This document shows, one piece after another, positions 28,297-50,781 of a stretch of DNA of 64,000 bases. How positions within the stretch are numbered: position 1 is the stretch's first letter; each line of letters opens with the position of its first letter. The position numbers and the translations under genes were made by a program. Source of the stretch: Aggregatilineales bacterium (lineage in GTDB: Bacteria; Chloroflexota; Anaerolineae; Aggregatilineales; Phototrophicaceae); contig DAIMZF010000002.1 in NCBI GenBank assembly GCA_036734085.1, forward strand, positions 20,404-84,403, written 5' to 3'. The notes beneath the pieces are model-generated. The model saw only the letters and a program-made list of their open reading frames with translations. It did not search any database and had not been told where the DNA came from.

Positions 28297-29448
28297 CTAG
28301 CGGGAGCGCCGCCGCCAGCGTTCTTTAAGTTCAATTTTGCTGATGTCGGGTAATTCCAGGAACATCCCTACCAACCTCTGGAATGTATCATGCTCCAACA
28401 TCGGGAAGTGACGCACACCCGCCAATGGCACAGGCAACAGTTTGTCTTCTTTGTCTTCCGTGATGTAATTCCAGATGGCTTCTTGCGGGGACGGAATCAC
28501 CGGGTCTTGGTCGCCGTGTAGCACAACGACTGGCATTGCTAACCCCCGCAGGGTGTCCAGCGTATATCCTGCATCAAAATCCTGCGCGGCATATTCCAGC
28601 ACTTTGGAGTCACTCTTGGCGACATCCTGCTGAAGTTTTTCGTATTCCGGGTCGGACTTTTTAAAGCAATTGCCTAGCAGGGCTTCCATATCATTAGACA
28701 GCACCGCCTTAAGCGGGTTATGGCCGTTGCTCTTGGGGGTGGGTGCGTCTTCCGGTGCTGGCTGTGGCAGGGTAGGTGCAGGGATGCTGATAGACGCAGG
28801 CTGGTTTTCTGCCGCTTTGCGTTGCTCGGCTAAAAAAGCCGCCGCCCGCCGCAGGGCGTCCCGGTCAATTGTGCTGGGGTTGCGTAGGGTCTCGCGCAGG
28901 GCGCTAGGCAATGTCTTATCATCATCCGCGATGACTTGTAAGTCCGCCTCTTTTTTGCGGCGGTTATCCATCCCGGCGGGGATTGTCTTCTCTACCGCTG
29001 TGTTGACCACTGGCGCGGCGGTGGCATTGGTCAGGTAAACCTGTTTACCCGGCGGGATGCGATTCTCTAAATCACCGGGATCAAACAATGGCACACTGAC
29101 AAGCAACATTCGGGCGACGCGATCGGGGTATTGACGGGCGAATTCTATTGCCACCTGCGCGCCATAACCATGTGCCAGTACCGCGACTTTGGGGATGCCT
29201 AACTGCTCCATAAATTCATCCAGCAAGCGCACCTGAGACTTCAGCGCGTACTTTTGTGGGTTCTTGCCGGAATCCCCATAGCCGAACAAATCGAGCGCGT
29301 ACACGCGATATTTTAGCTGAAGCTGGCGCATTGTGGGAATCCAATAGCGCCAGGAGCCAATCCAGCCATGTAATAAAACGACCGGGCGTCCGCCGCGTCC
29401 TAATACTTCGTAATGAACCAAGTCTCCGTCTACAGTGATGGCACTCAT
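28297..29448 (-). CDS. Alpha/beta-hydrolase-fold protein lacking the nucleophile Ser, with a long Pro/Ala-rich insertion
   Basis: 383-aa ORF. The N-terminus is paralogous to the 41234-42022 product (VHYEVLGRGGRPVVLLHGWIGSWRYW). The elbow is AHGYGA (29158-29172) where GHSMGG is expected. Asp (HGDQDPV) and His (VRHFP) are retained. An insert of ~130 aa lies between core strands. Confidence 0.7.
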   Translation of the reverse strand: MSAITVDGDLVHYEVLGRGGRPVVLLHGWIGSWRYWIPTMRQLQLKYRVYALDLFGYGDSGKNPQKYALKSQVRLLDEFMEQLGIPKVAVLAHGYGAQVAIEFARQYPDRVARMLLVSVPLFDPGDLENRIPPGKQVYLTNATAAPVVNTAVEKTIPAGMDNRRKKEADLQVIADDDKTLPSALRETLRNPSTIDRDALRRAAAFLAEQRKAAENQPASISIPAPTLPQPAPEDAPTPKSNGHNPLKAVLSNDMEALLGNCFKKSDPEYEKLQQDVAKSDSKVLEYAAQDFDAGYTLDTLRGLAMPVVVLHGDQDPVIPSPQEAIWNYITEDKEDKLLPVPLAGVRHFPMLEHDTFQRLVGMFLELPDISKIELKERWRRRSR

Positions 29449-29479
29449 GAAACTTTATTTTCCCCATTTATGGCAATCA

Positions 29480-29857
29480 TCATAACGCGCCGATTTGCCC
29501 TAGAATTTCATTAACACGCTGGGTCAATTCATCGGGCGCGAAGGGCTTGAGTAAGTAAGCATAGGCCCCAACCTCTGCGCCTTTTTCGATTTCTTCGTCC
29601 TGGCCTTTGGCCGTTAAAAACACGACAGGCACATCTTTTAAATGCTCAATGGCTTTGATGCGTCTGCACGCTTCGTAGCCTGTTAGTTTGGGCATTCGCA
29701 CATCCATCATAATCAAATCAGGTGTGACTTCCTGTGCTTTTTCTACCGCTTCTTCGCCATTGGCCGCCAACGTGACCTGATGCCCGGCAAAGGTCAGCAT
29801 GATGTTGATGAGTTCGCGGATGTCGCGCTCGTCTTCCGCAATGAGGATATGTGCCAT
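29480..29857 (-). CDS. Single-domain CheY-like response regulator
   Basis: 125-aa ORF with ILIAEDERD, DLIMMDVRMPKLTG and LLKPF. It starts 5 nt downstream of the kinase stop. Confidence 0.9.
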   Translation of the reverse strand: MAHILIAEDERDIRELINIMLTFAGHQVTLAANGEEAVEKAQEVTPDLIMMDVRMPKLTGYEACRRIKAIEHLKDVPVVFLTAKGQDEEIEKGAEVGAYAYLLKPFAPDELTQRVNEILGQIGAL

Positions 29858-29862
29858 GATGT

Positions 29863-32800
29863 CTAATTATTCCCACTATTGGGTGATGATGAATACAGAT
29901 ATTCTGGCTGGTAGTAGGGCAAGGCAACATAGAAAGTTGTGCCTACGCCTGTTTCGGATTCAAACCAGACTTCACCGTGATGCATCTCAACCAATTCTTT
30001 AACAATCGATAACCCCAGTCCTGTACCGGCGACTTCCAATGTTACTGCTGTGTCATCGTCGCGTTTAAAGCGTTCCCACACGCTATCGCGGAAGCCTTCC
30101 GGCACGCCGACGCCTGTATCCGCCACACTCACAAGCAGACGGTTACGGTCATCCTGCGGCGTTAACTCCACTGATATAGTACCATTGGCGGGGGTGTAGT
30201 TAAAGGCGTTGTCTACTAAATTATTGATAACTTGCGTCAGTTTGTCCGCGTCGCCCTGGATCAATGGCAGGTCGCCGATGGGGTCAAACTGCACATCCAA
30301 CCGTTTGCTTTGATGTTGTGGGCGCGATTGGATATGCTCCAACACTTGCTCTACAATCGTATTCATATCAACCATCTGCACGCTCAGGCGCTCCCGCCCG
30401 GAGTCAATCTTGGAGATGTTCAACACGTCTTCCACGAGTGCGGCCAGGCGCGTGATGTTATCTTTGATGGTGGTCAGCATCATTTTTTGCTGGTCACCGA
30501 CTTCGCCAAATGCACCCATCAGTAGCAAATCATTGTAGCCCTTAATGGATGTTAGCGGCGTGCGGAACTCGTGCGATACGTTCGCCACAAACTCCGCCTT
30601 GCTTTGCTCCGCGAGGACTTCGCGTGTTACGTCACGGAACACCGAGACCGTGCCCAAGAACTTTTCGCCCGTGTAAACAGGGGATAGATGCACGCTGACG
30701 GTTCTATTGCCCAGCGTAATACGCTCATCCAGGAATTCTTCGCGCATGTAATCTGGGTTACGCAATTTTTCTTCCAGTGTTTCCGCCCAGGAAGCGGCTG
30801 TCGCGCCATACACACCGGTGATTTGACTCAGTGGTTGGCCGATAGCCTCATTACGTGGCATACGGAAGATGCGCTCTGCGGCATTGTTAAATAGCAGAAT
30901 TCGTCCTTCGGAGTCTGCCAACACCACACCATCCGCGATGCCTTCCAGAATGGCTTTGTTCTTGTCGGCTTCTTCCTGCTCTGCGCGGAGCAGTGTACCC
31001 AGACGTTCCGCTTGCTCACGGATCATCTTATAAAGTTCCGCGTTATTGATAGAGGATGCAACCTGATTCGCCGCCGCAACCATCAAACGGACGTGTGACT
31101 CGTGGAAGGCGTTCTCGTCACGGCTGAGTAGCACCATTACGCCGAGCAGTTCTTCGTTAGTCTCCAGCAAAACACCGATGGCACTACGCCAGTCTTTGCC
31201 GCCGGGCATGTCTAAATCCCAGTATTCTTCGGTATGCAGGTTGTTCACCAGCCGCACATGCTCATCTTCCATGATAATCCAGCGTGCGATGCGCTCCGCC
31301 GGATGCAGAGGACGCTCACCTGTGGGATTTTCGTAGAGTGAATTCGGGTTCATCGTCGCACGACTGTAAAGTTGGTCTGTGATGGGGTCTAATTGCATGA
31401 TCACCCCATCTTGTGCGCCGACGGCCTTCGCCACCATACCCAACGCGCGCGGCATTAACCTGTCCATATCCAGCGTCCGCGCTAATTCCGACGTGATTTG
31501 ATACAGTTTGTCGATGCGGTCGCGTTCTTCTTCCAACTCGCGGGTACGCTCCGCGACTTCGCGCTCCATATCATCGGCAAAACTGCTCACCTGACGGAAC
31601 AGACGTGCGTTCTGGATGGCCGCGCCCAACTGAGAGCCGACGATGGTGAGAATACGTTGCTCATTGATGGTAAAAGCGCGGGTGCGCTTGGTATCTCGCA
31701 CGGCCAACACACCGTAGACCTCATCCCCTGCGATGAGCGGAACACCGAGATAGCTCCGTGCTTCGCCTTCGCCATTGGTGATGCCCAAACTCTTGCGTAG
31801 TTCATCCGGGCTGTAATAATCCGCCCCTAAGTTCAACGGACGGCGGTGCTTGATGATAAACGATACTTCATCGTTAGAGAGCTTACGCGGTGGGATGCCG
31901 TAAGTTTCGCCATAGCGCACCGCTAATGGGAATGTGATTGATTCCGTCGCGCTATCATACAATGCCAGATACAGTTCGCTTGCACCTGTCACACTCGGCA
32001 ATTGCTCGCGCACGACCTCGAACATATCTTCCACGTCCAGCGTGCTAGAGATAGCGCGGCTGAGGTCGTTAATCATCAACGATTCTTCAAAGTGGGCGGT
32101 TGTCTCTGCGGATAGTCGGGCGTTTTCAATGGCGACCGCCACCTGTGCGCCCAATGCCCGCGCCAACCGGACTTTCTGCTGTGTAATCGCCTCACCAGAT
32201 TTTGTGCCCAGCACAATCAATCCGCGTGAGGTTTCGCTGACAACCAACGGCACAAGCATTCGGGCCGCATCGCCTACTTGCTGGATGCTTTCAACCTCTC
32301 TGGGGTAGGGTGTGTTTTCGTCTTCGCGCATGATGACGACCACTTCGCGGTCTTTAAGCGCACGCAGACGGGCGGGGTATTGGCTGAGGTCATAGTGTGT
32401 GCCGGACGGCGCCATAAGCGATGTGTCGCCTTCACGGTTCATATCAAGCTGGACTTCCAGCAGATTATCGACTTCGTCCCAAATCATGATGGCGCAGTTG
32501 TCCATCTCTAACGCGCTGAACATTAATTCCACCACTGTCTGGAACACAGATGCAAGGTCTGTGGTGAGCGATGTGGCTTGTGCGGCCTCTAACAATGTGC
32601 CCAGTTCGTTGGTGCGGTCAAACGTCTGCTCGAACAAATCCGCATTCGCCAACGCAATCGCTACCTGACTGGCAAACGCAAACGCGATATTCTGGTCGGA
32701 ACGGCTATCGTAGGTAAAGGGCTTATCGTTGACAATCATCATCAAGCCCACCACATGCCCCTGATTCACCAGAGGGACGCTCATCCAGCTTTTGAAGTCT

Positions 32801-35800
32801 TTGTGAGGCACGGCATCCGGCAATTGCACGTCGCCACTTGCCACTACCACACGCTGAGATTCCACCACCTGCCGGATCATCTCGTAATCGCTGAATAAAA
32901 AGCGGATGTTGGGCGCGGTATCGTGGTTGGTGGTACGTTCCAACACCATGTAAGAGCCATTGCGCCGCCATAGTGAAACCGATGTGTGCGGGATAAGCCA
33001 GACCATTTCTTCTAAGGCTAAATCCACCACTTCTTCGCGTTCCAATGATGATGTGATGCGCGTGGAAACATCCGTCAGTGCGGCCAACTGGTTCGCGCGC
33101 GATTCCATCGCTTGCTCCAGGCGGGAGCGTTCGGTAACGTCTTCTACCAAGACCACCGCACCGCGTACTGTCGTGCCAAAACGCAAGGGGTAGATGTAGA
33201 AGTTGGTTGTCACGATTTCATCAGAGGCGATATTCACGGCCTGATTAGTAATGCTTTCCGGCGTGCCTTGCGTCAGCGTGATGGTCAGCTTTTCGGCCAG
33301 GATTGCCGCAACTTCCGGCAGATAGTCCGCAAGGTTTTGTCCGCTTGTGGTATAACCCCACTGGTAACGCTCCACCAGGAAGCCATTAACGCTGATGAGC
33401 TTGCCCAGATTATCCAGCACCATAATCCCCTGTTGGATAGACTGCACAACGGACTCATTCAGGATTTGCAGGTTCACTGCTTGGTCGAACAAGCGCGCAT
33501 TTTGCACGGAACTGGCGACAAACTGCGCCATACGCCGTAATAATTGCCGGAATTCGCGTAGTTCGGCGGTGTGCGAGGCGGTGACGCCAATATGGACAAC
33601 CCCTAATGACTCGCCGCCTGTTTGTAGCGGCAAGATGAGTGTGGCCGCATCGCCGTTTGTATGCCATTCGCGCAGGTCGCTATATTTTTCCAGTTCGACA
33701 TCGTCGGCTGTGTAGAGGTAATCGCGGCTTTCGGTCAGGGTGCGGTGGATGGCCGTATCGCCTAAGTGCTGACGTAGATCGTGCAGAACATCAAAATCGC
33801 CGTCACTGCGGCTGATGACATGCGAAAAATCGAAGGCGTCGTCCGGTGTACGCAGAACAAATGTCATGCGTGCAAACGGCAATATCTGGACAATGCCGCG
33901 TGCCACTGCACGTACAATGCCATCAATGTCCAACGTGCTGGAAACAGCCTCCAGGATGTCGTTCAACTGCGCTTCTTGTTCCGCGCTGGCTAAACTGGAT
34001 AGATACAAACGTGTATTTTCAATCGTGGAAGCCGCTTGATTGGCGAAAATCTCCAGTACTTCTACCGTGCCTCTATCCGGGCGCATGTTGGTATGAGGCC
34101 GGTCAAGGCACATCAGGCCGATGAGCGCCCCTGATGGCCCGGTCATCCGCACGACGAATAAATCGCCATCGTGCCAACTCTCTTTATCGGACATATCCAA
34201 CGTGCGATTACCGTCGAAATGGGCGCTGAGAGATTGCACACCCTCGACGAACCAATCCTTGACTTGCTCCACCGGGAAGAAGTACGACTCGCTGATGCGG
34301 AAATCCGGCTTAAATAAGTTCTCTAGCGCCTCCACAGGCAGGGTATTATGGCGGCTCTGGTTAAAGGTATCTAACGGTAGCCCTGCATGAGCCACCCGGC
34401 GCAGGGTATTGGTATCAGCGTCCATCAGCAACATAACAATCGCGTCAAAACCGACGGACTGTTGCACGCTGTAGGCGATAGCTTCCAGGATGCTGGCTGG
34501 GTCTGCGTTGCTCTGCACCATATGGCCTAGCTCGAAGATACGGTTAAGCTGGTCAACACGGCGACGCAGATTTTCGCTCCGGTCAAGCTGTTCCTGGTAA
34601 CGCACAGCATTCCCGTAGCCCAGAGATGCTTTAACCGCCATCGTCATCATAAAGGCGCTGGCGCGGTCATCAAAGTGGTTGGCACGCTCGTGGAATAAGT
34701 GAATTGTGCCGACGATTTCTTCGATGTGCAAAATGGGCACAACCAGCGCGGAACGTGCCTCTGCTGGAATGGGCGTCATTGTGCTGAGGTCGTAGTCCGT
34801 GACGTTGACGGGGGAACCGTTGGTATGTAGTGCCTCGCGCTCTGCGTCGGTGAGGCCTTTAATCTCTTTCTGTAGGCCGATGCGTTGCGTCACACGCTCC
34901 TCACCCGGCACAATCAATGCGATGGTGCATCCGGTGGCGCTTGTTGCGCGGATGGATTCCTCTGCGATGACCTTCAAAATAGGTTCTAAGTCCAGCGTGG
35001 CCGTTAACTCGTTGCTGACGCGAGAAACAGCGTCCAGTTCTTCGATACGACGGCTGAGGTTTTCACCCGTTGCTTCGTACAACAGCAGGCGGTCAAGCGC
35101 GGCGGCAATCTGCGCGGCCACGACTTGCATAACTTCCAGGTCTTCACGGGTGAAGGGCGTATCCGTATAGCGATTGCCGATGCCTAACTCTCCCAGTTGA
35201 CGTTCACCGAAGACCAATGGAACAATCAAGCCGTTGTGCAGGTTCAGCCGTTGTGCAACTTGCCGGTAGCTGATGTTCACGGTGTCTCCGTCTTCGCCTT
35301 CATTCAATATCATCGGCTTTTGGGAGGATGTGACACTTTTATCAAAACCGGCGGCGTATATATCCTGATACAAGGGTTCGCTAAGTTCCGCACCGTAAAC
35401 CCAACGCGGATACGTGACTAAGTTGCCACTATCCACTACACTGACGAACACCGTTTCCACTTCATTGAGCAGGGCAATCTCGGCCAGCACAGGCGTGAAT
35501 GATTCTTGTGATGTTAATACGTTGCCTGCAAGTTCTGCCACGCGGCGCAGATTCTGTGCTTGCTCTGCGCGGCGTTGTGCTTCGCGGAACAGGCGCGCAT
35601 TTTCAATAATGGCGGCGGCTTGTGTGGCGAAGATGAGCAAGAGCCGGGCGTCATTGTTGGTGAAGTCTTCCCCGTTGCGCTTGTTGGCCGCTTGCACCAG
35701 GCCTAAGCGCCGCCCACTGGCCTGCATCACGCCGAACATCGTCTTCTGGATGCCCATTTGTGCCATTGTTTCGTCCAACTTAGCGGCGAAGAACAATGTA

Positions 35801-37563
35801 TCGGCCTGAACACGGTTACTGTACCAATAACGCTCTTCCTCCCATAGTTGCCGCATAATTGTATTCGGCAACACCGGGATTTGATATCGCCCGGAAAGTG
35901 TGTCGTCCACACCATAGAACGGTAATTGGCAGACGAGGCGCTCGTTGGCTTCGTCATAGAGCAAAATTCCGGCGATTTCAATATTCATTAAGTTGGCGAT
36001 ACGCTCGGTGATGTCGCCGTAGAATTCCGCTTCGTGGCTTAATGAGCCGATGGCGTTGGTGATTTCCTGCAAGCCGATGAGTTCAGCATCCATCTGTTGC
36101 TCACGCTCGAACAAGCGCAGGTTTTCAATCACGACGGCGACCTGCACCGCGAGGATGGTTAAATTCTGGATGTCGGAGTTATTAAAGCCGCCTTCAGCGC
36201 GTTTATTGCTGACGGCAATGACACCGATGCGCGACCCGCCAAGCGTTAGCGGCATCCATACCGTGTTGATGATACCCGATAGGCTGACGATGGGAGCCAA
36301 GCCTAAAGACTCGACTAACGGCTCGTCCTGCACATCATTGGAAATCCAGTATTGTTGATTATTCCAGATGCCCGCTTGGGGTGTGCCTTTGGTAAGCGGA
36401 ATGAAAATATTGCGGACGAGGGCTTCCGGCAAGCCCTGTACAGGGGATTGCATGACCAGCCCGTTACGCTCACTGTCATACAGCAGGATGCCGCACATAT
36501 CTGCATCCAGCAGATGCGCGATGCGCTCGTTGAGTGTGGCATAGACGTTTTCTATGCCTTCGTTTTGCGTGTTAGCGGCTTCCATAGATTGCTGGAACAT
36601 CGCAATATCGCTAATGCGCCGCGTCTGTTGGGAATAAACATCTGTGTTATAGATGGTCACGGCGGCGGGTTTGGAGATAGCTTGTAATAGCGCCATATCG
36701 CCGGGCGTAAAGGCTCCCGGCAGGCGGCTGGCAAGCTCCATTGTGCCGATGAGCTTATCGCCTAAAACAATGGGTGTAGCGACGAAGCTCTGATATTCTG
36801 TAGGGAGTTTGGTCTGGATGGCGGCGGTGGCCTGTGTCTCGATGAGAACAGGCTGGCGGTTTTCCGCAATCCACCCCGTGATGCCTTCGCCCATCTGGTA
36901 AAAACCGCCAGCTTCCGCCAGTGCTAACAGGTAGGTGGTATCCCCCGCCCATCCGCGCTGGTTGAGCACTTGTTCATTTTCATCCCATAGGCTGATTTCC
37001 GCCGCATCAAAGCGGATATATTTGCCTATGATGGTCAAAATGGCTTGCAGGGCTGGTTCCAGGCTGAGTGTGACGTTTACCGTATCGCCTATCTCGTTGA
37101 TAATCGCCATCGCCCGCCCCATGTCAAGTACATCGGGGTTGCTGGTATTGCTGGCAAGCTCCCGCAGGACGACAACTGTCCGCATCTCCGTACCTGCCGG
37201 GATGCGGTGCGACGAACCTTCCACCCAACGTTGCTCTAGCTGGAAGGACGCCTGTCCTTCCCCCGCGAACAACCCTAGAAAAGTATTTGTCGGCTCTGCC
37301 ATGCGTGCCAATTGCTCCAGGTGCGGTTGTCCACCGTTGAGCTTGAGCATCCGCCGGGCAGGGGCGTTCAGATAGATAAGTTTGCCGTGTTCATGGGCGA
37401 CAATCACCGCGTCCCCGTGTCCTACCGTAGGCACGGTGTGTGGGGCAATCATGTCGTCAAGGTCAAAGTCCGCGTCGGCCTGTACCTCCCGCGAACGTGC
37501 CCAAAAGTAAATCCATGCGATGGTAACCAGACCACCCAAAAATAACACAAGCGCCAAATTCAT
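29863..37563 (-). CDS. Giant membrane-anchored multi-GAF/PAS sensor histidine kinase
   Basis: 2566-aa ORF with one N-terminal TM helix. About 10-11 GAF-like modules each end in an (I/V)(E/Q)NARL(F/Y)-type helix. There are at least two PAS-like modules (IQQGIMVLDNLGKLISVN, ILEGIADGVVLADSEGRILLFN). Kinase motifs are H-box SHEFRTPLTSI, N-box NLVDNAFNYT and G-boxes DTGVGV / GTGLGLSI. Confidence 0.9.
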   Translation of the reverse strand: MNLALVLFLGGLVTIAWIYFWARSREVQADADFDLDDMIAPHTVPTVGHGDAVIVAHEHGKLIYLNAPARRMLKLNGGQPHLEQLARMAEPTNTFLGLFAGEGQASFQLEQRWVEGSSHRIPAGTEMRTVVVLRELASNTSNPDVLDMGRAMAIINEIGDTVNVTLSLEPALQAILTIIGKYIRFDAAEISLWDENEQVLNQRGWAGDTTYLLALAEAGGFYQMGEGITGWIAENRQPVLIETQATAAIQTKLPTEYQSFVATPIVLGDKLIGTMELASRLPGAFTPGDMALLQAISKPAAVTIYNTDVYSQQTRRISDIAMFQQSMEAANTQNEGIENVYATLNERIAHLLDADMCGILLYDSERNGLVMQSPVQGLPEALVRNIFIPLTKGTPQAGIWNNQQYWISNDVQDEPLVESLGLAPIVSLSGIINTVWMPLTLGGSRIGVIAVSNKRAEGGFNNSDIQNLTILAVQVAVVIENLRLFEREQQMDAELIGLQEITNAIGSLSHEAEFYGDITERIANLMNIEIAGILLYDEANERLVCQLPFYGVDDTLSGRYQIPVLPNTIMRQLWEEERYWYSNRVQADTLFFAAKLDETMAQMGIQKTMFGVMQASGRRLGLVQAANKRNGEDFTNNDARLLLIFATQAAAIIENARLFREAQRRAEQAQNLRRVAELAGNVLTSQESFTPVLAEIALLNEVETVFVSVVDSGNLVTYPRWVYGAELSEPLYQDIYAAGFDKSVTSSQKPMILNEGEDGDTVNISYRQVAQRLNLHNGLIVPLVFGERQLGELGIGNRYTDTPFTREDLEVMQVVAAQIAAALDRLLLYEATGENLSRRIEELDAVSRVSNELTATLDLEPILKVIAEESIRATSATGCTIALIVPGEERVTQRIGLQKEIKGLTDAEREALHTNGSPVNVTDYDLSTMTPIPAEARSALVVPILHIEEIVGTIHLFHERANHFDDRASAFMMTMAVKASLGYGNAVRYQEQLDRSENLRRRVDQLNRIFELGHMVQSNADPASILEAIAYSVQQSVGFDAIVMLLMDADTNTLRRVAHAGLPLDTFNQSRHNTLPVEALENLFKPDFRISESYFFPVEQVKDWFVEGVQSLSAHFDGNRTLDMSDKESWHDGDLFVVRMTGPSGALIGLMCLDRPHTNMRPDRGTVEVLEIFANQAASTIENTRLYLSSLASAEQEAQLNDILEAVSSTLDIDGIVRAVARGIVQILPFARMTFVLRTPDDAFDFSHVISRSDGDFDVLHDLRQHLGDTAIHRTLTESRDYLYTADDVELEKYSDLREWHTNGDAATLILPLQTGGESLGVVHIGVTASHTAELREFRQLLRRMAQFVASSVQNARLFDQAVNLQILNESVVQSIQQGIMVLDNLGKLISVNGFLVERYQWGYTTSGQNLADYLPEVAAILAEKLTITLTQGTPESITNQAVNIASDEIVTTNFYIYPLRFGTTVRGAVVLVEDVTERSRLEQAMESRANQLAALTDVSTRITSSLEREEVVDLALEEMVWLIPHTSVSLWRRNGSYMVLERTTNHDTAPNIRFLFSDYEMIRQVVESQRVVVASGDVQLPDAVPHKDFKSWMSVPLVNQGHVVGLMMIVNDKPFTYDSRSDQNIAFAFASQVAIALANADLFEQTFDRTNELGTLLEAAQATSLTTDLASVFQTVVELMFSALEMDNCAIMIWDEVDNLLEVQLDMNREGDTSLMAPSGTHYDLSQYPARLRALKDREVVVIMREDENTPYPREVESIQQVGDAARMLVPLVVSETSRGLIVLGTKSGEAITQQKVRLARALGAQVAVAIENARLSAETTAHFEESLMINDLSRAISSTLDVEDMFEVVREQLPSVTGASELYLALYDSATESITFPLAVRYGETYGIPPRKLSNDEVSFIIKHRRPLNLGADYYSPDELRKSLGITNGEGEARSYLGVPLIAGDEVYGVLAVRDTKRTRAFTINEQRILTIVGSQLGAAIQNARLFRQVSSFADDMEREVAERTRELEEERDRIDKLYQITSELARTLDMDRLMPRALGMVAKAVGAQDGVIMQLDPITDQLYSRATMNPNSLYENPTGERPLHPAERIARWIIMEDEHVRLVNNLHTEEYWDLDMPGGKDWRSAIGVLLETNEELLGVMVLLSRDENAFHESHVRLMVAAANQVASSINNAELYKMIREQAERLGTLLRAEQEEADKNKAILEGIADGVVLADSEGRILLFNNAAERIFRMPRNEAIGQPLSQITGVYGATAASWAETLEEKLRNPDYMREEFLDERITLGNRTVSVHLSPVYTGEKFLGTVSVFRDVTREVLAEQSKAEFVANVSHEFRTPLTSIKGYNDLLLMGAFGEVGDQQKMMLTTIKDNITRLAALVEDVLNISKIDSGRERLSVQMVDMNTIVEQVLEHIQSRPQHQSKRLDVQFDPIGDLPLIQGDADKLTQVINNLVDNAFNYTPANGTISVELTPQDDRNRLLVSVADTGVGVPEGFRDSVWERFKRDDDTAVTLEVAGTGLGLSIVKELVEMHHGEVWFESETGVGTTFYVALPYYQPEYLYSSSPNSGNN

Positions 37564-37630
37564 AGCATAAACCTCACGTCACACACAAAATGCACCAAGC
37601 AACGGGATACCGGCGCTATCGGCGCATTGA

Positions 37631-38566
37631 TTACCAGGAGGTCGGGATAGGGGTGCTGGCGTCACCGCTTTCGCTTTCGCCCCGCCGCCGGTTGTCGGCG
37701 GCTAGTTCGGTAATTTCGCGGATGTCGGAGAATTGATGGGTCTGGGTAGAAACAACACCGACAGCCAGCGACATAAGTTCTACCTGTTTTTCACTCGCCC
37801 CGTTGCCATCCGGCACAAGGATATAACCACGTTCACGGTCAATAAACGAATAATGCTGTTTAATGCCGTCGTCAAAGCGCTCACTCATGCGGGCTTGCAC
37901 TTTTTTAGCATCTTCTACATGGGTGATGATGATAAAATTATCGCTACCCGGATGCCCGATGAAGTCGTCCGGCGTGCCGATGTCGTCCACCACTTCCCGT
38001 AAGACCATCGCCATAAAACGGATGACCTCATCGCCCGCCACAAAGCCGTAAACTTCGCGGAATTGGTCAAATGTATTGATTTTGATGTCGAGGTATGTCC
38101 AGGTCTGGCCTTCACGCATCAAATTACGCAGATGGTCTTCGATGAGCGTGCCAGTCGGCAACTGTGATTTTGGGTCTAGGTTCACCTGCCGTTTGGCGGC
38201 GGTGATGGCGTTTTGCACACGCAGTTTAAGCTCTTCAATGTCGAAGGGCTTGGTCACATAATCATCCGCGCCTAGTTCCAGCCCGATGATTTTGTCACTG
38301 CGTTCGTCACGTTGCGTCAGGAAGATAATCGGTACGTGCTTGGTGCGCGTCGTCGTGCGGAGTTCGCGGCACACGTCGTATCCGTTCATATCCGGTAGCA
38401 TAATATCCAGCATGATGAGGTCGGGCAATTGCTTGCGTGTCATGGAGAGCGCATCCCCGCCACGCGGCGCGACCTGCACTTCATAACCCTGCCCGCTAAA
38501 GTAAATCCTCAGCATGTTTGAGATGTCGAAGTCGTCTTCAACGACCAGAATCCTGCCTTTACTCAT
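37631..38566 (-). CDS. Response regulator with a degenerate GGDEF output domain
   Basis: Start set to ATG 38566 (MSKGRILVVEDD, with an AGAGGGG SD). REC motifs are DLIMLDIMLPDMNG and TKPF. The GGDEF-fold region is INTFDQFREVYGFVAGDEVI, but the signature reads GSDNF (37934-37948). Confidence 0.85.
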   Translation of the reverse strand: MSKGRILVVEDDFDISNMLRIYFSGQGYEVQVAPRGGDALSMTRKQLPDLIMLDIMLPDMNGYDVCRELRTTTRTKHVPIIFLTQRDERSDKIIGLELGADDYVTKPFDIEELKLRVQNAITAAKRQVNLDPKSQLPTGTLIEDHLRNLMREGQTWTYLDIKINTFDQFREVYGFVAGDEVIRFMAMVLREVVDDIGTPDDFIGHPGSDNFIIITHVEDAKKVQARMSERFDDGIKQHYSFIDRERGYILVPDGNGASEKQVELMSLAVGVVSTQTHQFSDIREITELAADNRRRGESESGDASTPIPTSW

Positions 38567-38704
38567 GGTATGAGCCCCTCTTAGTTTTGGGATTAAGCTC
38601 AAAACGAAGAAATGATAACGTACATTAACTATACACGATATGCGCCGAACCTGCACAAAATTGGCAAGGCTTTGTTAGAGATTACTAACACAGCCTCTTA
38701 TAGT

Positions 38705-39802
38705 TTACAAACTCGGCGACCAAGCTCCGCGCTTCGTGTGGGCGCGTTCCCGGACTGCGTTGATATGCTCCACACTCACGGGCTTCTCGAAACTGCGGAA
38801 ACCGGATAGCCGGAAGCCGTGTCGATGCGCGATTTCGCCGATTTCCAACGCTTGTTCAATGCTGATTTCTTTACCCAGCGTGTAATCTTCGTAACGGCCT
38901 TCCAGCGCCAGCGCCATTGTCTCTGCCATGCACGCAAACGCTTTGGTCGGCGGAAAGCCAAAATCAAAATTAAAGTTTACCGCGCCGGGCACTTCCACCA
39001 TGCCACCTTCAATCACCAGCACATCGTCGCGTTGTTCCGCCACCAACCGGGAAACATCACGCGGGCGGGCGACATCGCACACCACCGCGCCGGGCTTCAG
39101 GTGTTGCGGATGAATAATTGTATCAATCGCACTCGTAACCGTCAGTACCAAATCTGCGGTATACATGGCGCTCATCTCCGTGCTGACTGTGAACTGGGCG
39201 ACCTGGCCTTCGCATCGCTCGCGGACGGCGTGCAATGCCTCCGCTCGGCGTCCAATGAGCACCAATTCGCCCACTTGCCGGGCGAGTAACTCCGCACAGG
39301 TTTTGCCGATAGCCCCTGTCGCGCCGACGACGGCCACTGTCGCAGAAGCTAAATCAATGCCCATCTGCCGTGCCGCCTCCGCGATGGCGTCTACGGCGAT
39401 AACGACGGTGTAACTATCGCCCGTTGTCACCGGAATATCAAGGTGCTTGGCGATGGTGACGCCGGCATCACCAACGACTGCCGTAAACGCGCCGAGTCCT
39501 AAAATCTTTGCTCCCAGTTTTTCCGCCATGCGCCCGGTGGCAATAATCTTGTTATATACGACTTCCTCTGGCAGAGACAGCATCCGCTTGGGTGTGAGAG
39601 GGCAAGCCAACAGCCACCCCGTAAGGTCATTCCCTGTTGCCGTAGATTGTGCGCCTTCCACCTGAGATAAATACACCGGAGGGAAGAAGCGGGATAACCA
39701 GTTAATCATGCCTTCGCTGGCATACTGAAAAATCGGATATTTCCGCGCCACATCGCGCTTGATGTCGATGGGGTGGATGATAAAAGCGAAAGAATTAGTC
39801 AT
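38705..39802 (-). CDS. Acyl-ACP reductase (AAR)-like NAD(P)-dependent oxidoreductase (COG5322-type)
   Basis: 365-aa ORF. GIDLASATVAVVGATGAIGKTCAELL, FACMAETMALALEG (Cys codon 38930-38932) and IEQALEIGEIAHRHGF closely parallel the cyanobacterial AAR motifs as I recall them: GIDITQATVAVVGATGDIGSAV, FACFAEAMLLEFEG and IEKMEAIGEASVRHGF. Confidence 0.7.
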   Translation of the reverse strand: MTNSFAFIIHPIDIKRDVARKYPIFQYASEGMINWLSRFFPPVYLSQVEGAQSTATGNDLTGWLLACPLTPKRMLSLPEEVVYNKIIATGRMAEKLGAKILGLGAFTAVVGDAGVTIAKHLDIPVTTGDSYTVVIAVDAIAEAARQMGIDLASATVAVVGATGAIGKTCAELLARQVGELVLIGRRAEALHAVRERCEGQVAQFTVSTEMSAMYTADLVLTVTSAIDTIIHPQHLKPGAVVCDVARPRDVSRLVAEQRDDVLVIEGGMVEVPGAVNFNFDFGFPPTKAFACMAETMALALEGRYEDYTLGKEISIEQALEIGEIAHRHGFRLSGFRSFEKPVSVEHINAVRERAHTKRGAWSPSL

Positions 39803-39807
39803 TATAT

Positions 39808-41130
39808 TTACCAGTTATCCCATGTGCTTTCTGGCTCGCGGACTTCATCATGACGCGGATAAAACCGTTTGTGTACGTCCCCATGCTGGATGAAGTGATG
39901 GTCGCTTTCTTCATAAGACACATTGCGCGAGATGACGCGGCGCTGTGGGGATGCCACCAGCACCACATCGGACTCAATCATGCGACCTGGAAAAACGACC
40001 ATCCCGGAACCGATGCGGCAGTTGTGACCGATCGCACTGCCCAGCACAATCTGGCTGACCGTCTGAAGTTCGCCGTCAATGTTGGCGGCGCGGATGGGCT
40101 TCTGCGCGATGAGGTTAAAATCCGTAAAAGTACTGCCCGCGCCAACGAAGCTATTACGCCCGATGACGCACATCTGCAAGCAGGTATTCTGCGCGATAAT
40201 CGTATTTTCCATAACGTGCGTCAGGTAAAGCGATGCACGGAAGGGCAAGAAGCAACTATCCGCGACAGTGCTCATCATCAGCACACATCCGGCGTCAATG
40301 GTTACATTATTGCCGATGGTGCAGTTGTCAAGCACAACACCCGCCCCGATGTTGCAGTTATCGCCAATCACCGCCGGGCCGGTGATAATAGCAGAGGGGT
40401 CGATGGTGCAATTTTTGCCGATTTTGACCGCACCTGATGCGCTGAGTATCTGCTTTTGCTCCAGCACTGCCCGCCACAGGAGTTTTAATTGGGTGAATAC
40501 ACTGGTCTTGATGAGTGCATCCAGGCGGCCTGCCCGCGCAAAGTTGCCGAAGATAATCGACGCGAAGTAGACGTGTACCCAACTCTCGATGGAGATAATC
40601 GCCCGTTGCGGCGCATAGTGGGTCAGGTCGCCCTGTTGCATGGTCATAAAGTCCGGCACGGAGTAGAAGCCTATCTCGTGGCTGTCGCTGGGCACGACAA
40701 CGGCCTGTATGTTGGCGTCGTAGCCATCCGGAAAGTACCATAAATCTGCCAGAAACAGAATTTTATTGTCACTTCCCAACGTAGCCTCAAAGCCTTTGGT
40801 CAGGGGGATAGTGTAAGTGTGGAAGGCTTTATCGCTGGCGGGGAAGGCCGCCCGACACGCTTTTCCCAGCTTGCGTGCGGCTTCGATAAAATATTCAAAA
40901 AATGGCTTATCAAACCACAGGCTATCGCGGTAAACAACCGCTTCGCCCTGCACTTTATGCAGTTCATCGCGGCTATGGAACACACCGTTCAGGTCGATAT
41001 TTTCCTGCAAGACTTCAATAAATAAGTTCTCTTGATGAATTTTTAGTGGCTCTAAGCCGACTGTCAACAAGCTTGCCGGTTCGTTGAACGGCGGTACGTG
41101 TCGGGTGTCTTCGATAACATAGCGATACAT
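39808..41130 (-). CDS. Left-handed beta-helix (hexapeptide-repeat) protein with a nucleotidyltransferase-like N-terminal region
   Basis: 440-aa ORF. The C-terminal ~200 aa contain tandem hexapeptide repeats (IGKNCTIDPSAIITGPAVIGDNCNIGAGVVLDNCTIGNNVTIDAG...). The N-terminal half lacks the canonical GxGTR loop. It lies 5 nt upstream of the AAR-like gene. Confidence 0.7.
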   Translation of the reverse strand: MYRYVIEDTRHVPPFNEPASLLTVGLEPLKIHQENLFIEVLQENIDLNGVFHSRDELHKVQGEAVVYRDSLWFDKPFFEYFIEAARKLGKACRAAFPASDKAFHTYTIPLTKGFEATLGSDNKILFLADLWYFPDGYDANIQAVVVPSDSHEIGFYSVPDFMTMQQGDLTHYAPQRAIISIESWVHVYFASIIFGNFARAGRLDALIKTSVFTQLKLLWRAVLEQKQILSASGAVKIGKNCTIDPSAIITGPAVIGDNCNIGAGVVLDNCTIGNNVTIDAGCVLMMSTVADSCFLPFRASLYLTHVMENTIIAQNTCLQMCVIGRNSFVGAGSTFTDFNLIAQKPIRAANIDGELQTVSQIVLGSAIGHNCRIGSGMVVFPGRMIESDVVLVASPQRRVISRNVSYEESDHHFIQHGDVHKRFYPRHDEVREPESTWDNW

Positions 41131-41233
41131 AATGCGCTCCGGTGATGGTTAGCCGTGCGTTTGAATAATACAGTCATTATATCCTAGAATGACGATGCAA
41201 AGCATGGGGTTTACCCACAGGCAAAACTTGCAT

Positions 41234-42022
41234 CTAACTATTATAGAGGAAGTCGCGGATTGTATCATGAAAACGCCCTGGCTCGTCCATCATCGGGAAG
41301 TGCCCCGACCCCTCGAACCATGCGATCTTGCTTTGGGGCGCGCTGTGCTGTAAGACCTTCCACTGGTTAGGGCTAACGATACGGTCATACTTGCCGTAGA
41401 TGCCCAGCACAGGCATAGGTAACGCCGCCAGTTGGTTGCGTAAATCTGTCTGGCGTAGTGTGCCGATACTCTGGAAGAAAGATTCCGTTGAAATTTTGGA
41501 CATATCTTCAACAATCATCTTACCTACACGTTTGCCGTCCTTGGCGATGAAGTGTGCATAACCCCGCATGAACAACTTGAGCAGGGTAGGCGTTGTCCAG
41601 ATGATGCGGGCAATGCCCCGATATCCCGACAGTTTGAGCAGTAGATTTAGCGAACTGCCGACGATGGGCGAGCCGATGACGACAGTCTTGACGATTTTTT
41701 CCGGGAAGCGGACAGAAGCCGCCAGTGAAACCGTGCCGCCCATCGAATGCCCGATAAGCGGCGCTTTGGCGATGCCCAATCTATCCATAAATTGGTAGAC
41801 AGAGGTCACATAATTATCAACGGAGAAGTTTGCTTGATGGTCTACGGATTCACCGAAGCCGAAGAAGTCCAGCGCATAAGTCTTAAACTCTTTGCCGAGT
41901 ATTTCGATTGTATCGCGCCATAGCGCCCACGATCCAAGCCACCCATGTAATAGCAGAACAGGGCGTCCTCTACCGTAGGTTTCGTAATGGACGATTCCCT
42001 GTTCGGTCACCAATGTGGGCAC
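41234..42022 (-). CDS. Alpha/beta hydrolase (canonical Ser-Asp-His)
   Basis: 262-aa ORF with LLLHGWLGSW, the nucleophile elbow GHSMGG, YGKYDRIV (Asp) and GSGHFPMMD (His). Confidence 0.85.
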   Translation of the reverse strand: MPTLVTEQGIVHYETYGRGRPVLLLHGWLGSWALWRDTIEILGKEFKTYALDFFGFGESVDHQANFSVDNYVTSVYQFMDRLGIAKAPLIGHSMGGTVSLAASVRFPEKIVKTVVIGSPIVGSSLNLLLKLSGYRGIARIIWTTPTLLKLFMRGYAHFIAKDGKRVGKMIVEDMSKISTESFFQSIGTLRQTDLRNQLAALPMPVLGIYGKYDRIVSPNQWKVLQHSAPQSKIAWFEGSGHFPMMDEPGRFHDTIRDFLYNS

Positions 42023-42046
42023 GGTGTTTTCGCCTTGACGTTTCCG

Positions 42047-42577
42047 CTAATCCATCTCTTCGAGAATGGTATACAGTAATTCCAGCAAAACATCGCGCAC
42101 GCTATCACGCTCCTTAGCCACACACGGCAATAGCTTCACTTCCGGCTCAATACGGAGCGCAATCCGCATATCATCGGGGTTCCATGCGTCCGGGTGGTCT
42201 TGCTTGTTGGCGGCCACAACATAGGGCGTGGGCGCATAAGCGCGGAAGGTTTCTAGGATGCTTTTGGCTTCGCGGAAGGTCTCTGGCTTGGCACTATCCA
42301 CCATGACGATGAACCCCAACATGCCTTCGGCCAGGATTTCCCACATGAAGTCAAAACGGCGTTGCCCGGGTGTACCGAACAGATACAGCACCAAGTCATC
42401 ATCCACCGTGATACGTCCGAAGTCCATCGCTACCGTTGTTTGTTCTTTCTCTTCGCGCTCTGCCGCGCTGGAGATTTCTCTATCGGTAGTTACCACGTCA
42501 ATCTCACTGATTGCCCGGATGAACTCCGTTTTACCGGAGCTAAACGGCCCGGTGATCACCATTTTCACAGTTTGCAT
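42047..42577 (-). CDS. Small Ras-like GTPase of the COG2229/CvnD-MglA-like type
   Basis: 176-aa ORF with G1 GPFSSGKT, G3 FGTPGQ and G4 NKQD. Confidence 0.85.
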   Translation of the reverse strand: MQTVKMVITGPFSSGKTEFIRAISEIDVVTTDREISSAAEREEKEQTTVAMDFGRITVDDDLVLYLFGTPGQRRFDFMWEILAEGMLGFIVMVDSAKPETFREAKSILETFRAYAPTPYVVAANKQDHPDAWNPDDMRIALRIEPEVKLLPCVAKERDSVRDVLLELLYTILEEMD

Positions 42578-42618
42578 AATCTGTCCTGCTTCCCGTAATG
42601 ATGTCGAATAAACGGAAC

Positions 42619-43506
42619 TTAAATCGACTTAATGCGGTCGATTAATCTTGTTACCACGTCTTTGGAAGGCCCCGGTTGCTGGCGGCTACGCCGCTTGCTG
42701 TTGAGCGTTCCAGTACGCGGTAGTTGAGCTTTTTCTTCGGTCAATGGCTTAACCACATCCACCAACCCGGCCTGCTGTAACCCATACACTACACGCCGAA
42801 TTTCCATGTCGGACATATTATTCGCCTTAGCAATCTGGCGAATAGTATTCTTCGGGTTGACATAAGATACCACGCGCCATGCTTCTACGCTAAGGTGAAT
42901 CCCCTTAAACTTCTCTTTGGGATTTTCCGGGAACTGCAACGCCATATCCAGGTTAGGGATGCTGTCGCGCAACATCTCATCATCTTCGATGCGCCGTGCC
43001 CCTTCCAGGATGACATTTTCCAGGTCGATGGGTACTAAAATCCGATTGCTGTCCGGCATATTGGTTTCATCGAAGCGGAACGGCCCTTCGCGCCATGTCA
43101 TCAGGTTATACACGGCATCGAGTGTATATTGTTGGATGCTAACGACAATATCTTTTTGGGAAACATAATTCGCCCCGATGAGCCGCATAGCCAGTGCTTT
43201 GTCGCTGGCCCCTTTTGCACGGTCACGGATGATATTTGCTTGTTGGTCGTTGAGCTTGCCGGCTTTGTTCAGCACGGCGATTAAATCACCCTTTTGACCT
43301 GCCATGACTGCCTGTACAAGCTTTCCCTCTTTGAAGACCACGCGGGCACGTTCATCACCGGGCGCCATCTTCTCTTTGTCCATAGCATCTTTTTCGCCCG
43401 TCGGGATGCCTTCGTGGATGAACAACGTCCCCGTACGGCGCGACAGGTTCATGAGGTTTAGTAGTTGTGTTGGTGTAAAATCTCTTAGATTACCTTGAAG
43501 TGGCAT
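42619..43506 (-). CDS. DUF4388 (PatA-N-like) domain protein with a C-terminal wHTH-like segment
   Basis: 295-aa ORF. The N-terminal LQGNLRDFTPTQLLNLMNLSRRTGTL is the DUF4388 signature. The C-terminal IRQIAKANNMSDMEIRRVVYGLQQAGLVDVV resembles the DUF742-type wHTH. A basic tail follows. Confidence 0.7.
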   Translation of the reverse strand: MPLQGNLRDFTPTQLLNLMNLSRRTGTLFIHEGIPTGEKDAMDKEKMAPGDERARVVFKEGKLVQAVMAGQKGDLIAVLNKAGKLNDQQANIIRDRAKGASDKALAMRLIGANYVSQKDIVVSIQQYTLDAVYNLMTWREGPFRFDETNMPDSNRILVPIDLENVILEGARRIEDDEMLRDSIPNLDMALQFPENPKEKFKGIHLSVEAWRVVSYVNPKNTIRQIAKANNMSDMEIRRVVYGLQQAGLVDVVKPLTEEKAQLPRTGTLNSKRRSRQQPGPSKDVVTRLIDRIKSI

Positions 43507-43547
43507 CGAAACTCCCTACATCCCATCCACGCTATGAATCTGACATG

Positions 43548-43576
43548 ATTATAACGGGGTGGTATAGTCAAGTCAA
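43548..43576 (-). promoter_or_regulatory. Near-consensus sigma70 promoter of the DUF4388/GTPase block
   Basis: On the minus strand: TTGACT (43576-43571), a 17-nt spacer, then TATAAT (43553-43548). It is ~40 nt upstream of the ATG at 43506, which has a GGGAG SD. Confidence 0.7.
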
Positions 43577-46933: not shown

Positions 46934-46935
46934 GG

Positions 46936-49059: not shown

Positions 49060-49068
49060 TGCGAGTTG

Positions 49069-49578
49069 TTACAGCGACCCCGCCCACGCGCTAAAGCCCA
49101 ATACCAGCACGCCGAGCGCGGTGTTTAACCACGTCAGGCGGATCTCGCGGCGGCGCAGGCGTTGCCATGTGGCCTTATCCTCTTTGTCGCGCTCTAACAG
49201 AAGGCTGGTACGTTCCAGAGCAGGGGCGATACCATATTGCAGAATCGCGCCACAGAGCACCATCCCAATGATGGCGATATGCTTTACGAAGATAACCACA
49301 CTCCACTGATTGCTGAAATCCAGAAAACCCTGATAGTTCTCATTAAGTGACATTTGAACCAAACCGGTAAAGACCAGTACGACAAGGCTTAAGTTGGCAT
49401 ACGGCGCGAAGCGCCGACGCAGGCGTGTAAGCAACGTATAAAGCGCGGGCGATTCCTGCAAAGTGCGTTTGGCTTCCGGCCAGATTAAAATGGTTGTGAT
49501 GATGAGGCCGCCCACCCATACCGCCGTCGCCAGCAGATGAAAGAACAGGCTAATCGCAAGGATTGTACTCTGGGGCAT
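49069..49578 (-). CDS. CopD-like small membrane protein
   Basis: Start set to the Met of MPQSTILAISLFFHLLATAVWVGG, which removes most of the overlap with the upstream gene. Four hydrophobic helices. The family call is tentative. Confidence 0.35.
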   Translation of the reverse strand: MPQSTILAISLFFHLLATAVWVGGLIITTILIWPEAKRTLQESPALYTLLTRLRRRFAPYANLSLVVLVFTGLVQMSLNENYQGFLDFSNQWSVVIFVKHIAIIGMVLCGAILQYGIAPALERTSLLLERDKEDKATWQRLRRREIRLTWLNTALGVLVLGFSAWAGSL

Positions 49579-50779: not shown

Positions 50780-50781
50780 AT

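Follow-up and report, generated by a model that had tools for sequence, protein, structure and literature searches.

Genes for an MglA-family GTPase, a thioester reductase and a 12-GAF histidine kinase form a class-wide, putative signalling neighbourhood in Anaerolineae

Introduction

What holds together a run of nine tightly packed genes in which a small GTPase, a thioester reductase and a 2566-residue histidine kinase are encoded side by side? The run lies in a 64,000-nucleotide stretch of DNA, here called the window, from an Aggregatilineales bacterium of the class Anaerolineae (assembly GCA_036734085.1, contig DAIMZF010000002.1, positions 20,404 to 84,403 of the forward strand). Anaerolineae are abundant filamentous bacteria of sludge, sediments and hot springs of which few have been cultured, and to our knowledge their cell biology is almost unstudied. 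An earlier note on this DNA had described the run as a composite system behind one promoter. A class-wide, strongly promoted cluster offers a concrete way into how Anaerolineae filaments sense and organise, and this one joins the lineage's most conserved small GTPase to a giant multi-GAF kinase and a reductase predicted to form aldehydes.

Our analysis indicates, as far as sequence can tell, that the run is a real, previously undescribed signalling neighbourhood of the class, built of three modules. Its pieces are of known kinds, namely an MglA-family GTPase, a PATAN protein, a two-component system and an AAR/PigE-type reductase, and the locus misses the defining features of conservons, MglA/MglB pairs, AAR-ADO pathways, PigE and PatA-type regulators. 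Full-text literature searches found no account of this cluster, which agrees with the view of the earlier note that the combination is not a described system. If the modules cooperate, signalling by a G protein together with a histidine kinase would extend past Actinomycetota and Myxococcota, the homes of conservons and MglA-Frz, and PATAN proteins and pseudo-hydrolases would become new partners of small GTPases. If the modules are independent, the locus would be a useful case of inherited synteny mimicking an operon.

Results

Organisation of the locus

We re-derived the locus from an open reading frame (ORF) map of the window and assigned domains with Pfam and NCBIfam. The nine genes, with product lengths in amino acids (aa) and their modules (M1 to M3), are:

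42619..43506, minus strand, gene 1: PATAN (PatA_N/DUF4388) protein, 295 aa, M1
42047..42577, minus strand, gene 2: MglA-family small GTPase, 176 aa, M1
41234..42022, minus strand, gene 3: alpha/beta hydrolase ABH1, 262 aa, M1
39808..41130, minus strand, gene 4: nucleotidyltransferase-like/LbH protein, 440 aa, M2
38705..39802, minus strand, gene 5: AAR/PigE-N-type thioester reductase, 365 aa, M2
37631..38566, minus strand, gene 6: REC plus degenerate GGDEF protein, 311 aa, M3
29863..37563, minus strand, gene 7: histidine kinase, 2566 aa, M3
29480..29857, minus strand, gene 8: single-domain CheY-like receiver, 125 aa, M3
28297..29448, minus strand, gene 9: Ser-less alpha/beta hydrolase ABH2, 383 aa, M3

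The map reproduced the nine minus-strand ORFs in the order described before, and the intergenic gaps were recomputed, with the same result, as 41, 24, 103, 5, 138, 67, 5 and 31 nt. The domain labels given to all nine proteins in the earlier note agree with the Pfam and NCBIfam matches, and the run does go on, at spacings of 12, -1, 2 and 6 nt, into genes for TPK (thiN), a DUF402 protein, a YgjP-like/DUF45 protein and MurJ. The 138-nt gap between the reductase and REC-GGDEF genes presumes that the latter starts at ATG 38566. The full ORF spans 37631-38656; we take the ATG at 38566, which yields the 311-aa product, as the true start because of its Shine-Dalgarno (SD) sequence, the length of the orthologues (310-311 aa) and public gene calls. 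The same genes, including that for the 311-aa REC-GGDEF protein, were called independently on public contigs from this organism. The nine genes fall into three modules, M1 (genes 1-3), M2 (genes 4-5) and M3 (genes 6-9).

Persistence of gene order across the class

The reductase has thousands of close homologues, and those that bear names carry the labels Anaerolineae, Anaerolineaceae, Phototrophicales or Aggregatilineales. When one genome of each GTDB species was scanned by pattern, at least 586 reductase relatives were confirmed. As a synteny sample we used the best 80 of these at least 586 loci, which come from Anaerolineae-type metagenome-assembled genomes (MAGs) with 64-72% reductase identity, and scored them by tblastn of the window proteins against each species locus; fine pattern counts refer to the 41 loci that extend at least 6 kb upstream and at least 5 kb downstream. 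The earlier note had considered that the gene order might break up in close relatives. It persists over the class Anaerolineae at 64-72% reductase identity and outlasts most of the other genes that flank it in the window: the GDSL gene was found in 0/80 loci and the RNase-Z-like gene in 2/80. The TPK gene was found in one locus, few loci extending that far downstream. Public contigs with gene calls, one of them a 6-Mb genome, show the same order at 84%, 72%, 70% and 67% identity, as does the cultured Phototrophicus methaneseepsis, at about 4.939-4.960 Mb of CP062983.1, in a look-up anchored on the GTPase. Such GTPase-anchored look-ups returned close relatives only (≥85% identity), all with the full cluster.

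Upstream of the reductase, a co-directional LbH gene is found in 60/71 loci, the GTPase and ABH1 genes are present in 34/55 and the PATAN gene in 30/48; downstream, REC-GGDEF is found in 54/69 and the kinase in 48/63. The CheY-like receiver follows the kinase in all 21 loci covering this position, and ABH2 follows the receiver in 15 of 16. Genes 1-7 are colinear in 21 of the 41 loci. Next to the reductase, only PATAN-GTPase-ABH1 are missing in seven loci, these three together with LbH in five, and REC-GGDEF with the kinase in another five; two loci have the reductase alone and one has only LbH-reductase. Breakpoints occur only at module borders. The order of the modules, or at least their nearness, withstands independent insertions, and the modules stay nearby after local inversions in three loci (L033, L084 and L076). 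M1 in particular is all-or-none, with three genes in 39 loci, none in 38, and partial sets in three loci at or near contig ends. Where M1 is present it lies nearly always immediately upstream and co-directional, mostly 16-130 nt from LbH, and in one whole sub-clade M1 is absent and LbH is the first gene of the unit, the genes upstream of it being divergent.

The reductase and M3 are adjacent in 33/41 loci, and M1 adjacency is seen in 26/41. We infer that reductase-M3 is the firmest functional link in the cluster and that M1 is a frequent yet separable partner. A narrower system can be built on the same figures, in which the reductase, either by itself or together with LbH, and M3 are all there is, the phosphorelay senses or post-translationally controls the reductase, and M1 is a separate, strongly expressed switch, for example for type IV pili or polarity. 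The sub-clade whose unit starts at LbH without M1 would suit such a system; the nearly constant place of M1, if present, directly upstream and in the same direction does not, and we consider this narrower system unlikely. A separate metagenome scan anchored on REC-GGDEF gave no usable figure for how often the reductase adjoins M3: its patterns lay in the generic REC domain, and 77 of its 80 loci were unrelated response regulators, with orthologues in L096, L097 and L100 only, the reductase being directly upstream in 3/3.

Three loci (L027, L058 and L085) carry an Anaerolineae-type cluster under the MAG labels Pleurocapsa sp. or Candidatus Nitrotoga sp. These labels probably reflect binning or labelling errors, not horizontal transfer.

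M3, a predicted phosphorelay with degenerate members

By its domains, M3 is a two-component phosphorelay comprising a putatively membrane-anchored kinase and two receivers. The kinase begins with a transmembrane anchor (residues 1-22 are hydrophobic) and carries at least 10 Pfam GAF domains, for which a jackhmmer self-search gave 12 GAF domains in residues 166-2172 and a PAS domain in residues 2203-2332. Its HisKA domain (expect value, E, 4e-19) contains a phospho-His box, SHEFRTPL, and is accompanied by a HATPase domain (E 4e-27); orthologues are 2574-2779 aa long. The CheY-like receiver (Response_reg, E 6e-31) is encoded 5 nt after the kinase. In the REC-GGDEF protein the REC domain (Response_reg, E 4e-29) is intact, with a conserved phospho-acceptor motif, LDIMLPD. 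The two REC domains score above their cut-offs, and no DNA-binding output is found in either receiver.

The GGDEF domain (E 4e-9) reads GSDNF at its site in the window protein, where almost all of 58 aligned orthologues have G[RSGN]DNF, and the I-site position reads TPDD, with no I-site Arg, so that the protein does not have the features of a diguanylate cyclase. Likewise, ABH2 (Abhydrolase_1, E 3e-26, with a ~170-residue low-complexity insert) is a paralogue of ABH1, with 35% identity over 121 aa and AHGYGA opposite GHSMGG. Its elbow has Gly for Ser also in the orthologues, GHGLG[AG] in 11/11 of those covered, and thus lacks the G-x-S-x-G signature. The fact that these degenerate sites (GxDNF in GGDEF, GHGLGA in ABH2) are kept argues that they have selected, non-catalytic roles.

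The 12 GAF domains are mutually divergent (phmmer of GAF1 against the others gave E ~0.005-0.65) and their count is kept in orthologues, which suggests that the array is ancient and individually maintained, with no recent tandem expansion. A reading of the locus as anti-phage defence was dropped, as PADLOC gave generic REC-domain matches only.

M2, an acyl-thioester reductase and a degenerate nucleotidyltransferase-like partner

The reductase can be aligned over its full length to the PigE N-domain (4PPM) and to AAR (6JZU), sharing with them the fold family, a Rossmann GATGxIG motif and the Cys motif [YF]ACxAE. In the PDB profile alignment its [YF]ACMAE stretch matches FACFAE of AAR 6JZU and lines up with PigE 4PPM. 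This catalytic-Cys motif is found in 77/80 orthologues, and C291 and G160-A161-x-G163 do not vary among 16 orthologues, giving the protein both a catalytic Cys and a Rossmann NAD(P)H site. Its expected chemistry, judged from these motifs, is reduction of an acyl-thioester to an aldehyde. Unlike its relatives, it scores far below both family cut-offs, with 215 bits (E 1.5e-63; cut-off 850 bits) against PigE (NF053554), of which it covers profile positions 45-360 of 837 without the fused aminotransferase domain, and 122.7 bits (E 2e-35; cut-off 449.7 bits) against AAR (TIGR04058). The PigE N-domain is a closer relative than cyanobacterial AAR. No gene for an aldehyde-deformylating oxygenase (ADO) was found in the window cluster or the annotated loci, and a true cyanobacterial AAR/alkane pathway was ruled out by the score together with the missing ADO. 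The 'lipid aldehyde/alcohol pathway' of the earlier note is therefore weaker than was claimed, since both cut-offs are failed, neither an ADO nor an aminotransferase partner is present, and the partner that does occur, the LbH protein, is nucleotidyltransferase-like.

Pfam matches in the LbH protein, to Hexapep and to LbH_EIF2B (the latter just under the cut-off), are confined to residues 233-295. An AlphaFold2 model, with a mean predicted local distance difference test score (pLDDT) of 64.8 and values mostly of 74-94 for residues 1-150, consists of a nucleotidyltransferase-like N-domain, two long helices and a left-handed beta-helix. Foldseek searches with this model retrieved GMPPA/B, ST0452, RmlA and CobY (E 3e-5 to 1e-3) at low TM-scores of 0.23-0.36. 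The G-rich NTP-binding signature is absent from the N-terminus, where MYRYVIEDTRHV stands in place of GxGTR; in particular, YVIEDTRHV, with E7 and D8 invariant, occupies the position of the GxGTR(L/M) signature that a nucleotidyltransferase or GlmU-like enzyme would have. On this model, the protein looks like a nucleotidyltransferase-LbH protein with a degenerate N-domain. GMPPA and the gamma and epsilon subunits of eIF2B are similar in that a predicted GT-A-like N-domain is joined to an LbH domain and the glycine-rich signature is lost; the LbH protein differs from them in its ~10% identity, in the TM-scores of just 0.27-0.36 of a medium-confidence model, and in a long linker of helices and a conserved C-terminus rich in His and Cys that are unique to it. 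Residues 400-440, where the model has low confidence, contain a conserved His/Arg-rich stretch, YEESDHHFIxxGDVHKRFYPR, and the beta-helix has several invariant Cys residues. The C-terminal stretch and the Cys residues could form a metal or cofactor site.

The closest characterised relatives of the reductase act in natural-product pathways: in prodigiosin biosynthesis a thioester is converted to an aldehyde by the PigE N-domain (PMC8341465), and alkaloid clusters contain COG5322 fusions. The locus might accordingly be read as biosynthetic: ABH1, the LbH protein as an acyltransferase and the reductase would make an aldehyde-derived product, with dedicated regulators in the form of the GTPase and two-component genes; that conservons govern specialised metabolism in Streptomyces would be in line with this. 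We find a biosynthetic locus very unlikely, as the cluster has no conserved polyketide synthase, non-ribosomal peptide synthetase, fatty acid synthase, aminotransferase or transporter core, its class-wide vertical conservation at ~65-90% identity is atypical of secondary-metabolite loci, and its regulators encode far more sequence than its enzymes.

M1, a probable group 5 MglA GTPase with a PATAN protein and a hydrolase

The GTPase is more conserved than any other gene of the cluster, at 75-93% identity across the 80 species loci (median 85.5%) and 98% in the closest public contig. Its motifs are G1 GPFSSGKT, G2 TT, G3 LFGTPGQ and G4 NKQD, of which LFGTPGQ and NKQD are kept in 40/40 orthologues. 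The sequence around G2 reads ...EQTTVAMDF, and ~30 residues separate the GKT of G1 from the TT of G2, compared with ~18 residues between G1 GKT and G2 in Ras. Pfam matches are to ATP_bind_1/Ras/Arf, and the relatives in the PDB are Arf-like GTPases and MglA of T. thermophilus. In the MglA family, a GTPGQ G3 motif marks groups 2-5, as against TVPGQ in group 1 and DxxGQ in eukaryotic Ras, and groups 2-5 also have a G1-G2 insertion and a Thr beside the G2 Thr at the position of the group 1 intrinsic Arg finger (PMC4316618). The GTPase shares all three features, GTPGQ, Thr for the intrinsic Arg finger and the G1-G2 insertion. Group 5 is found in Chloroflexi and occasionally adjoins PATAN genes (PMC4316618), and the GTPase probably belongs to this group by sequence; that its G4 motif reads NKQD argues against group 2, which has NxFD.

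The PATAN protein contains PF14332 in residues 4-175 (E 6.8e-21) and, in a PDB search with a profile of 28 orthologues, a match of residues 191-285 to a MarR-family chain (E 1.6e-4). Like the PatA-type (PATAN-REC) regulators of cyanobacteria it carries, at the N-terminus, a PATAN domain with a helical insertion, but it lacks REC, ends in a MarR-like winged helix-turn-helix (wHTH) domain, and is paired with a GTPase, not with a chemotaxis-type kinase. PDB sequence and profile searches returned no structural relative for residues 1-190, and a single-sequence AlphaFold model aimed at a Roadblock/longin-like fold had a mean pLDDT of 34.9 and was unusable. Cyanobacterial PATAN domains bind the pilus motor PilB1, and PATAN is implicated in protein-protein control of spatial machinery. 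MglA, moreover, sorts PilB and PilT in Myxococcus. Both precedents would favour a separate pilus or polarity role for M1 and so the narrower reductase-M3 system, whereas the gene calls on the annotated public contigs include no pilus genes.

ABH1 (Abhydrolase_1, E 5e-28) has an intact nucleophile elbow, GHSMGG, conserved as GHS[ML]GG in 41/42 orthologues, and hence the catalytic G-x-S-x-G feature, and Asp and His can be read at the usual triad positions. Its nearest relatives in the PDB are meta-cleavage-product hydrolases, esterases, epoxide hydrolases and BioH. The idea of a signalling hydrolase of the RsbQ/KAI2/D14 type was set aside, no such receptor being among the best 60 PDB relatives, and any likeness to these receptors is conceptual only.

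Known MglA modules (Myxococcus Frz/RomR; Wuichet & Søgaard-Andersen 2014) resemble M1 in their single-domain GTPase with GTPGQ, the Thr-Thr of G2 and the G1-G2 insert. PATAN genes are known beside mglA/mglB, and the adjoining PATAN gene is an occasional neighbour of group 1 and group 5 mglA. Also shared, with the control of MglA by Frz/RomR, is the presence nearby of a phosphorelay with receiver-only proteins. The Anaerolineae locus differs in that no MglB/Roadblock gene neighbours the GTPase in the annotated loci, in that its PATAN protein has wHTH and not REC, in its obligate Ser hydrolase, in the linked thioester reductase and 12-GAF kinase, and in having no motility genes nearby. In conservons, which consist of the CvnA kinase, CvnB Roadblock, CvnC DUF742 and CvnD GTPase with accessory CvnE/F and which regulate specialised metabolism in Streptomyces, an MglA-family GTPase likewise goes with a sensor histidine kinase, in a locus that is conserved throughout the lineage and to which accessory genes are attached. 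Of that four-gene core just the kinase and GTPase are found here, with no Roadblock or DUF742 gene in any annotated locus. Further differences are a kinase that ends in ...YYQPEYLYSSSPNSGNN with no LPxR and has 12 GAF domains in place of HAMP/NIT, two receivers where conservons have none, NKQD for NxFD at G4, separable modules, and the phylum, Chloroflexota.

Promoters and transcription units

Three promoter elements are relevant to how the modules are expressed:

43548..43576, minus strand: near-consensus sigma-70-type promoter TTGACT-17-TATAAT, before the PATAN gene
41176..41181, minus strand: TATAAT box, possible internal promoter, ~45 nt upstream of the LbH start
38628..38633, minus strand: TATAGT box (gtgTATAGTt), possible M3 promoter, upstream of REC-GGDEF

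The first of these had been reported to precede the first gene only, and it is the sole 11/12 promoter match in a 19-kb scan. As TTGAC[TG]-17-TATAAT it is kept at 11/12 before PATAN in 35 of the 41 related loci. The spacer, the 5' untranslated region (5'UTR) and the distance to the start codon differ from locus to locus; kept hexamers amid diverging spacer and UTR argue that this promoter is under selection. Regions upstream of LbH, the reductase, REC-GGDEF and the kinase have background promoter scores, mostly 7-8 of 12. The TATAAT at 41176-41181, proposed earlier as an internal promoter, is present and has counterparts at a similar distance before LbH in the near relatives L001, L003/L004 and L005, although it occurs in just 7/46 loci overall. 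The gtgTATAGTt box recurs before the orthologous REC-GGDEF gene in ~20 loci. In other lineages, an Anaerolineales-like one among them, the gap between the reductase and REC-GGDEF is an SD-containing ~15-25 nt, and many loci have LbH and the reductase overlapping or separated by 0-30 nt. Tight reductase/REC-GGDEF spacing and a conserved promoter of M1's own are two further points in favour of the narrower reductase-M3 system.

The earlier note saw no strong terminator inside the block; terminator-like hairpins show no enrichment, 18 being found against 20.7±5.0 expected, and the terminator-like hairpins on the minus strand are 5-6-bp stems within coding sequence. Nor did the 5'UTR or the 103- and 138-nt gaps reveal a riboswitch or leader RNA, as the whole window had no Rfam match. 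Of the ~15 kb of genes described earlier as lying behind one promoter, the promoter itself is real; relatives with insertions between modules and the internal -10 boxes speak against one obligatory transcript for all nine genes, which is unlikely. The best reading of these sequences would be a strong constitutive M1 promoter, with possible read-through, plus lineage-specific secondary promoters. On the plus strand, a promoter-like CTGACA-17-TATAGT with an upstream TG (43540-43568) overlaps the minus-strand consensus promoter, and the DUF3048 and PATAN genes may share this overlapping, divergent promoter region.

Do the modules work together?

A joint function, in which a G protein and a phosphorelay form a network tied to a metabolite derived from an acyl-thioester, is the reading that we tentatively favour; by sequence and by analogy it appears possible rather than probable. 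A linked composite is reasonable because the order persists in relatives and because there is precedent for a GTPase beside a kinase, both in MglA-Frz/RomR and in conservons. In such a network the GAF/PAS array of the kinase would integrate small-molecule inputs, and the kinase would phosphorylate both receivers. These would act by protein-protein contact, either on the GTPase cycle, in the manner of RomR and FrzX/Z with MglA, or on the enzymes. The PATAN protein would fill the regulator or effector role that MglB/Roadblock proteins hold elsewhere. The reductase, LbH protein and ABH1 would make or consume an aldehyde-type metabolite, derived from the acyl-thioester, that could be either output or cue, and the Ser-less ABH2 may serve the kinase branch as a non-catalytic binder or adaptor.

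Several observations weigh against a joint function. All 80 loci of the synteny sample were anchored on the reductase, and the association of M1 with M3 was seen within reductase loci only. M1, LbH or M3 is missing beside the reductase in 20 of the 41 loci, and the genes that lie between modules in relatives encode a trypsin, a methyltransferase, a UDG, an FGE-sulfatase, an ABC transporter and, once, an opposite-strand MFS protein. That -10 boxes recur ahead of LbH and REC-GGDEF points to separate transcription units. In L001-L007, L088, L092 and L093, the gene calls covering ±10 kb include no Roadblock/MglB gene. Finally, inherited synteny could account for the adjacency without shared function, and adjacency alone proves no single system.

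The parting of modules, the unrelated genes between them and the candidate internal promoters would all be expected if the three modules were functionally independent, that is, a GTPase switch for polarity or motility, a housekeeping enzyme pair for envelope or lipid and an orphan phosphorelay on one inherited segment. We regard independence as possible, if doubtful. It draws support from neighbours with no evident link that are about as syntenic as the modules. In 17/28 loci the position directly upstream of M1 is taken by a block encoding a ~1050-aa protein, a Ser/Thr kinase (Pkinase), TY-Chap1 and Trypsin_2, and a DUF3048 gene is divergent within 1 kb of the PATAN gene in 18/29 and was shifted along with M1 in the L033 inversion; from these two counts, long-range inherited synteny is high in the class. 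A CopD/PMT_2/Lactamase_B block is found again in L001, L006, L010 and L012. The reductase itself, found in at least 586 stretches and ~65-70% identical over the class, fits a core enzyme. Independence accords less well with the restriction of breaks to module borders, the proximity of modules after the three inversions, the operon-type reductase/REC-GGDEF spacing in one lineage, the LbH/reductase overlap in some loci and the quick loss of other window flanks. It also leaves aside that paralogous hydrolases end both signalling modules, ABH1 closing M1 and ABH2 closing M3, a paralogy that ties M1 to M3 and in this way counts against the narrower reductase-M3 system as well.

Conservation of the cluster is thus partly above background. 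Of the one composite system proposed in the earlier note, the class-wide order and the MglA-Frz/RomR and conservon precedents stand, while its unity is weakened by the modular structure, by the 20/41 incomplete loci and by another block that is about equally syntenic. At its most extended, joint function would make the nine genes, possibly with the Ser/Thr-kinase block, one Anaerolineae-wide machine in which the GTPase/PATAN pair is wired to the 12-GAF phosphorelay, the reductase, LbH protein and hydrolase make a cue of fatty-aldehyde type, ABH2 is the receptor or adaptor for that cue, and the whole controls filament or envelope development. Such a machine strikes us as quite unlikely.

Neighbouring genes

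The following genes lie around the cluster in the window:

43631..44791, plus strand: divergent DUF3048 gene (PF11258 and PF17479), not assigned to the cluster
13482-16640, minus strand: 1052-aa protein of the kinase/protease block (window 8496-16640)
10706-13405, minus strand: 899-aa Ser/Thr protein kinase of the same block
8496-9884, plus strand: Trypsin_2 protease of the same block
45962-55239, co-directional block: Lactamase_B/RNase-Z-like protein, PMT_2 glycosyltransferase, CopD, and 469-aa and 1002-aa proteins

In the window the kinase/protease block has moved away from M1 and sits ~27 kb from it; the Ser/Thr-kinase/Trypsin_2 block may be part of a larger signalling neighbourhood. The CopD/PMT_2/Lactamase_B block is again found upstream of the cluster in L001. 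Three Aggregatilineales loci, L006, L010 and L012, have it right beside the reductase, with M1 and LbH missing, which suggests that M1 and LbH were lost or relocated in this lineage. Between the kinase/protease block and xseA, window positions 16850-22430 encode an iron-dependent repressor with FeoA, a phosphofructokinase, two SDR/enoyl-ACP-reductase-like proteins and a D-2-hydroxyacid dehydrogenase, and look like ordinary housekeeping content.

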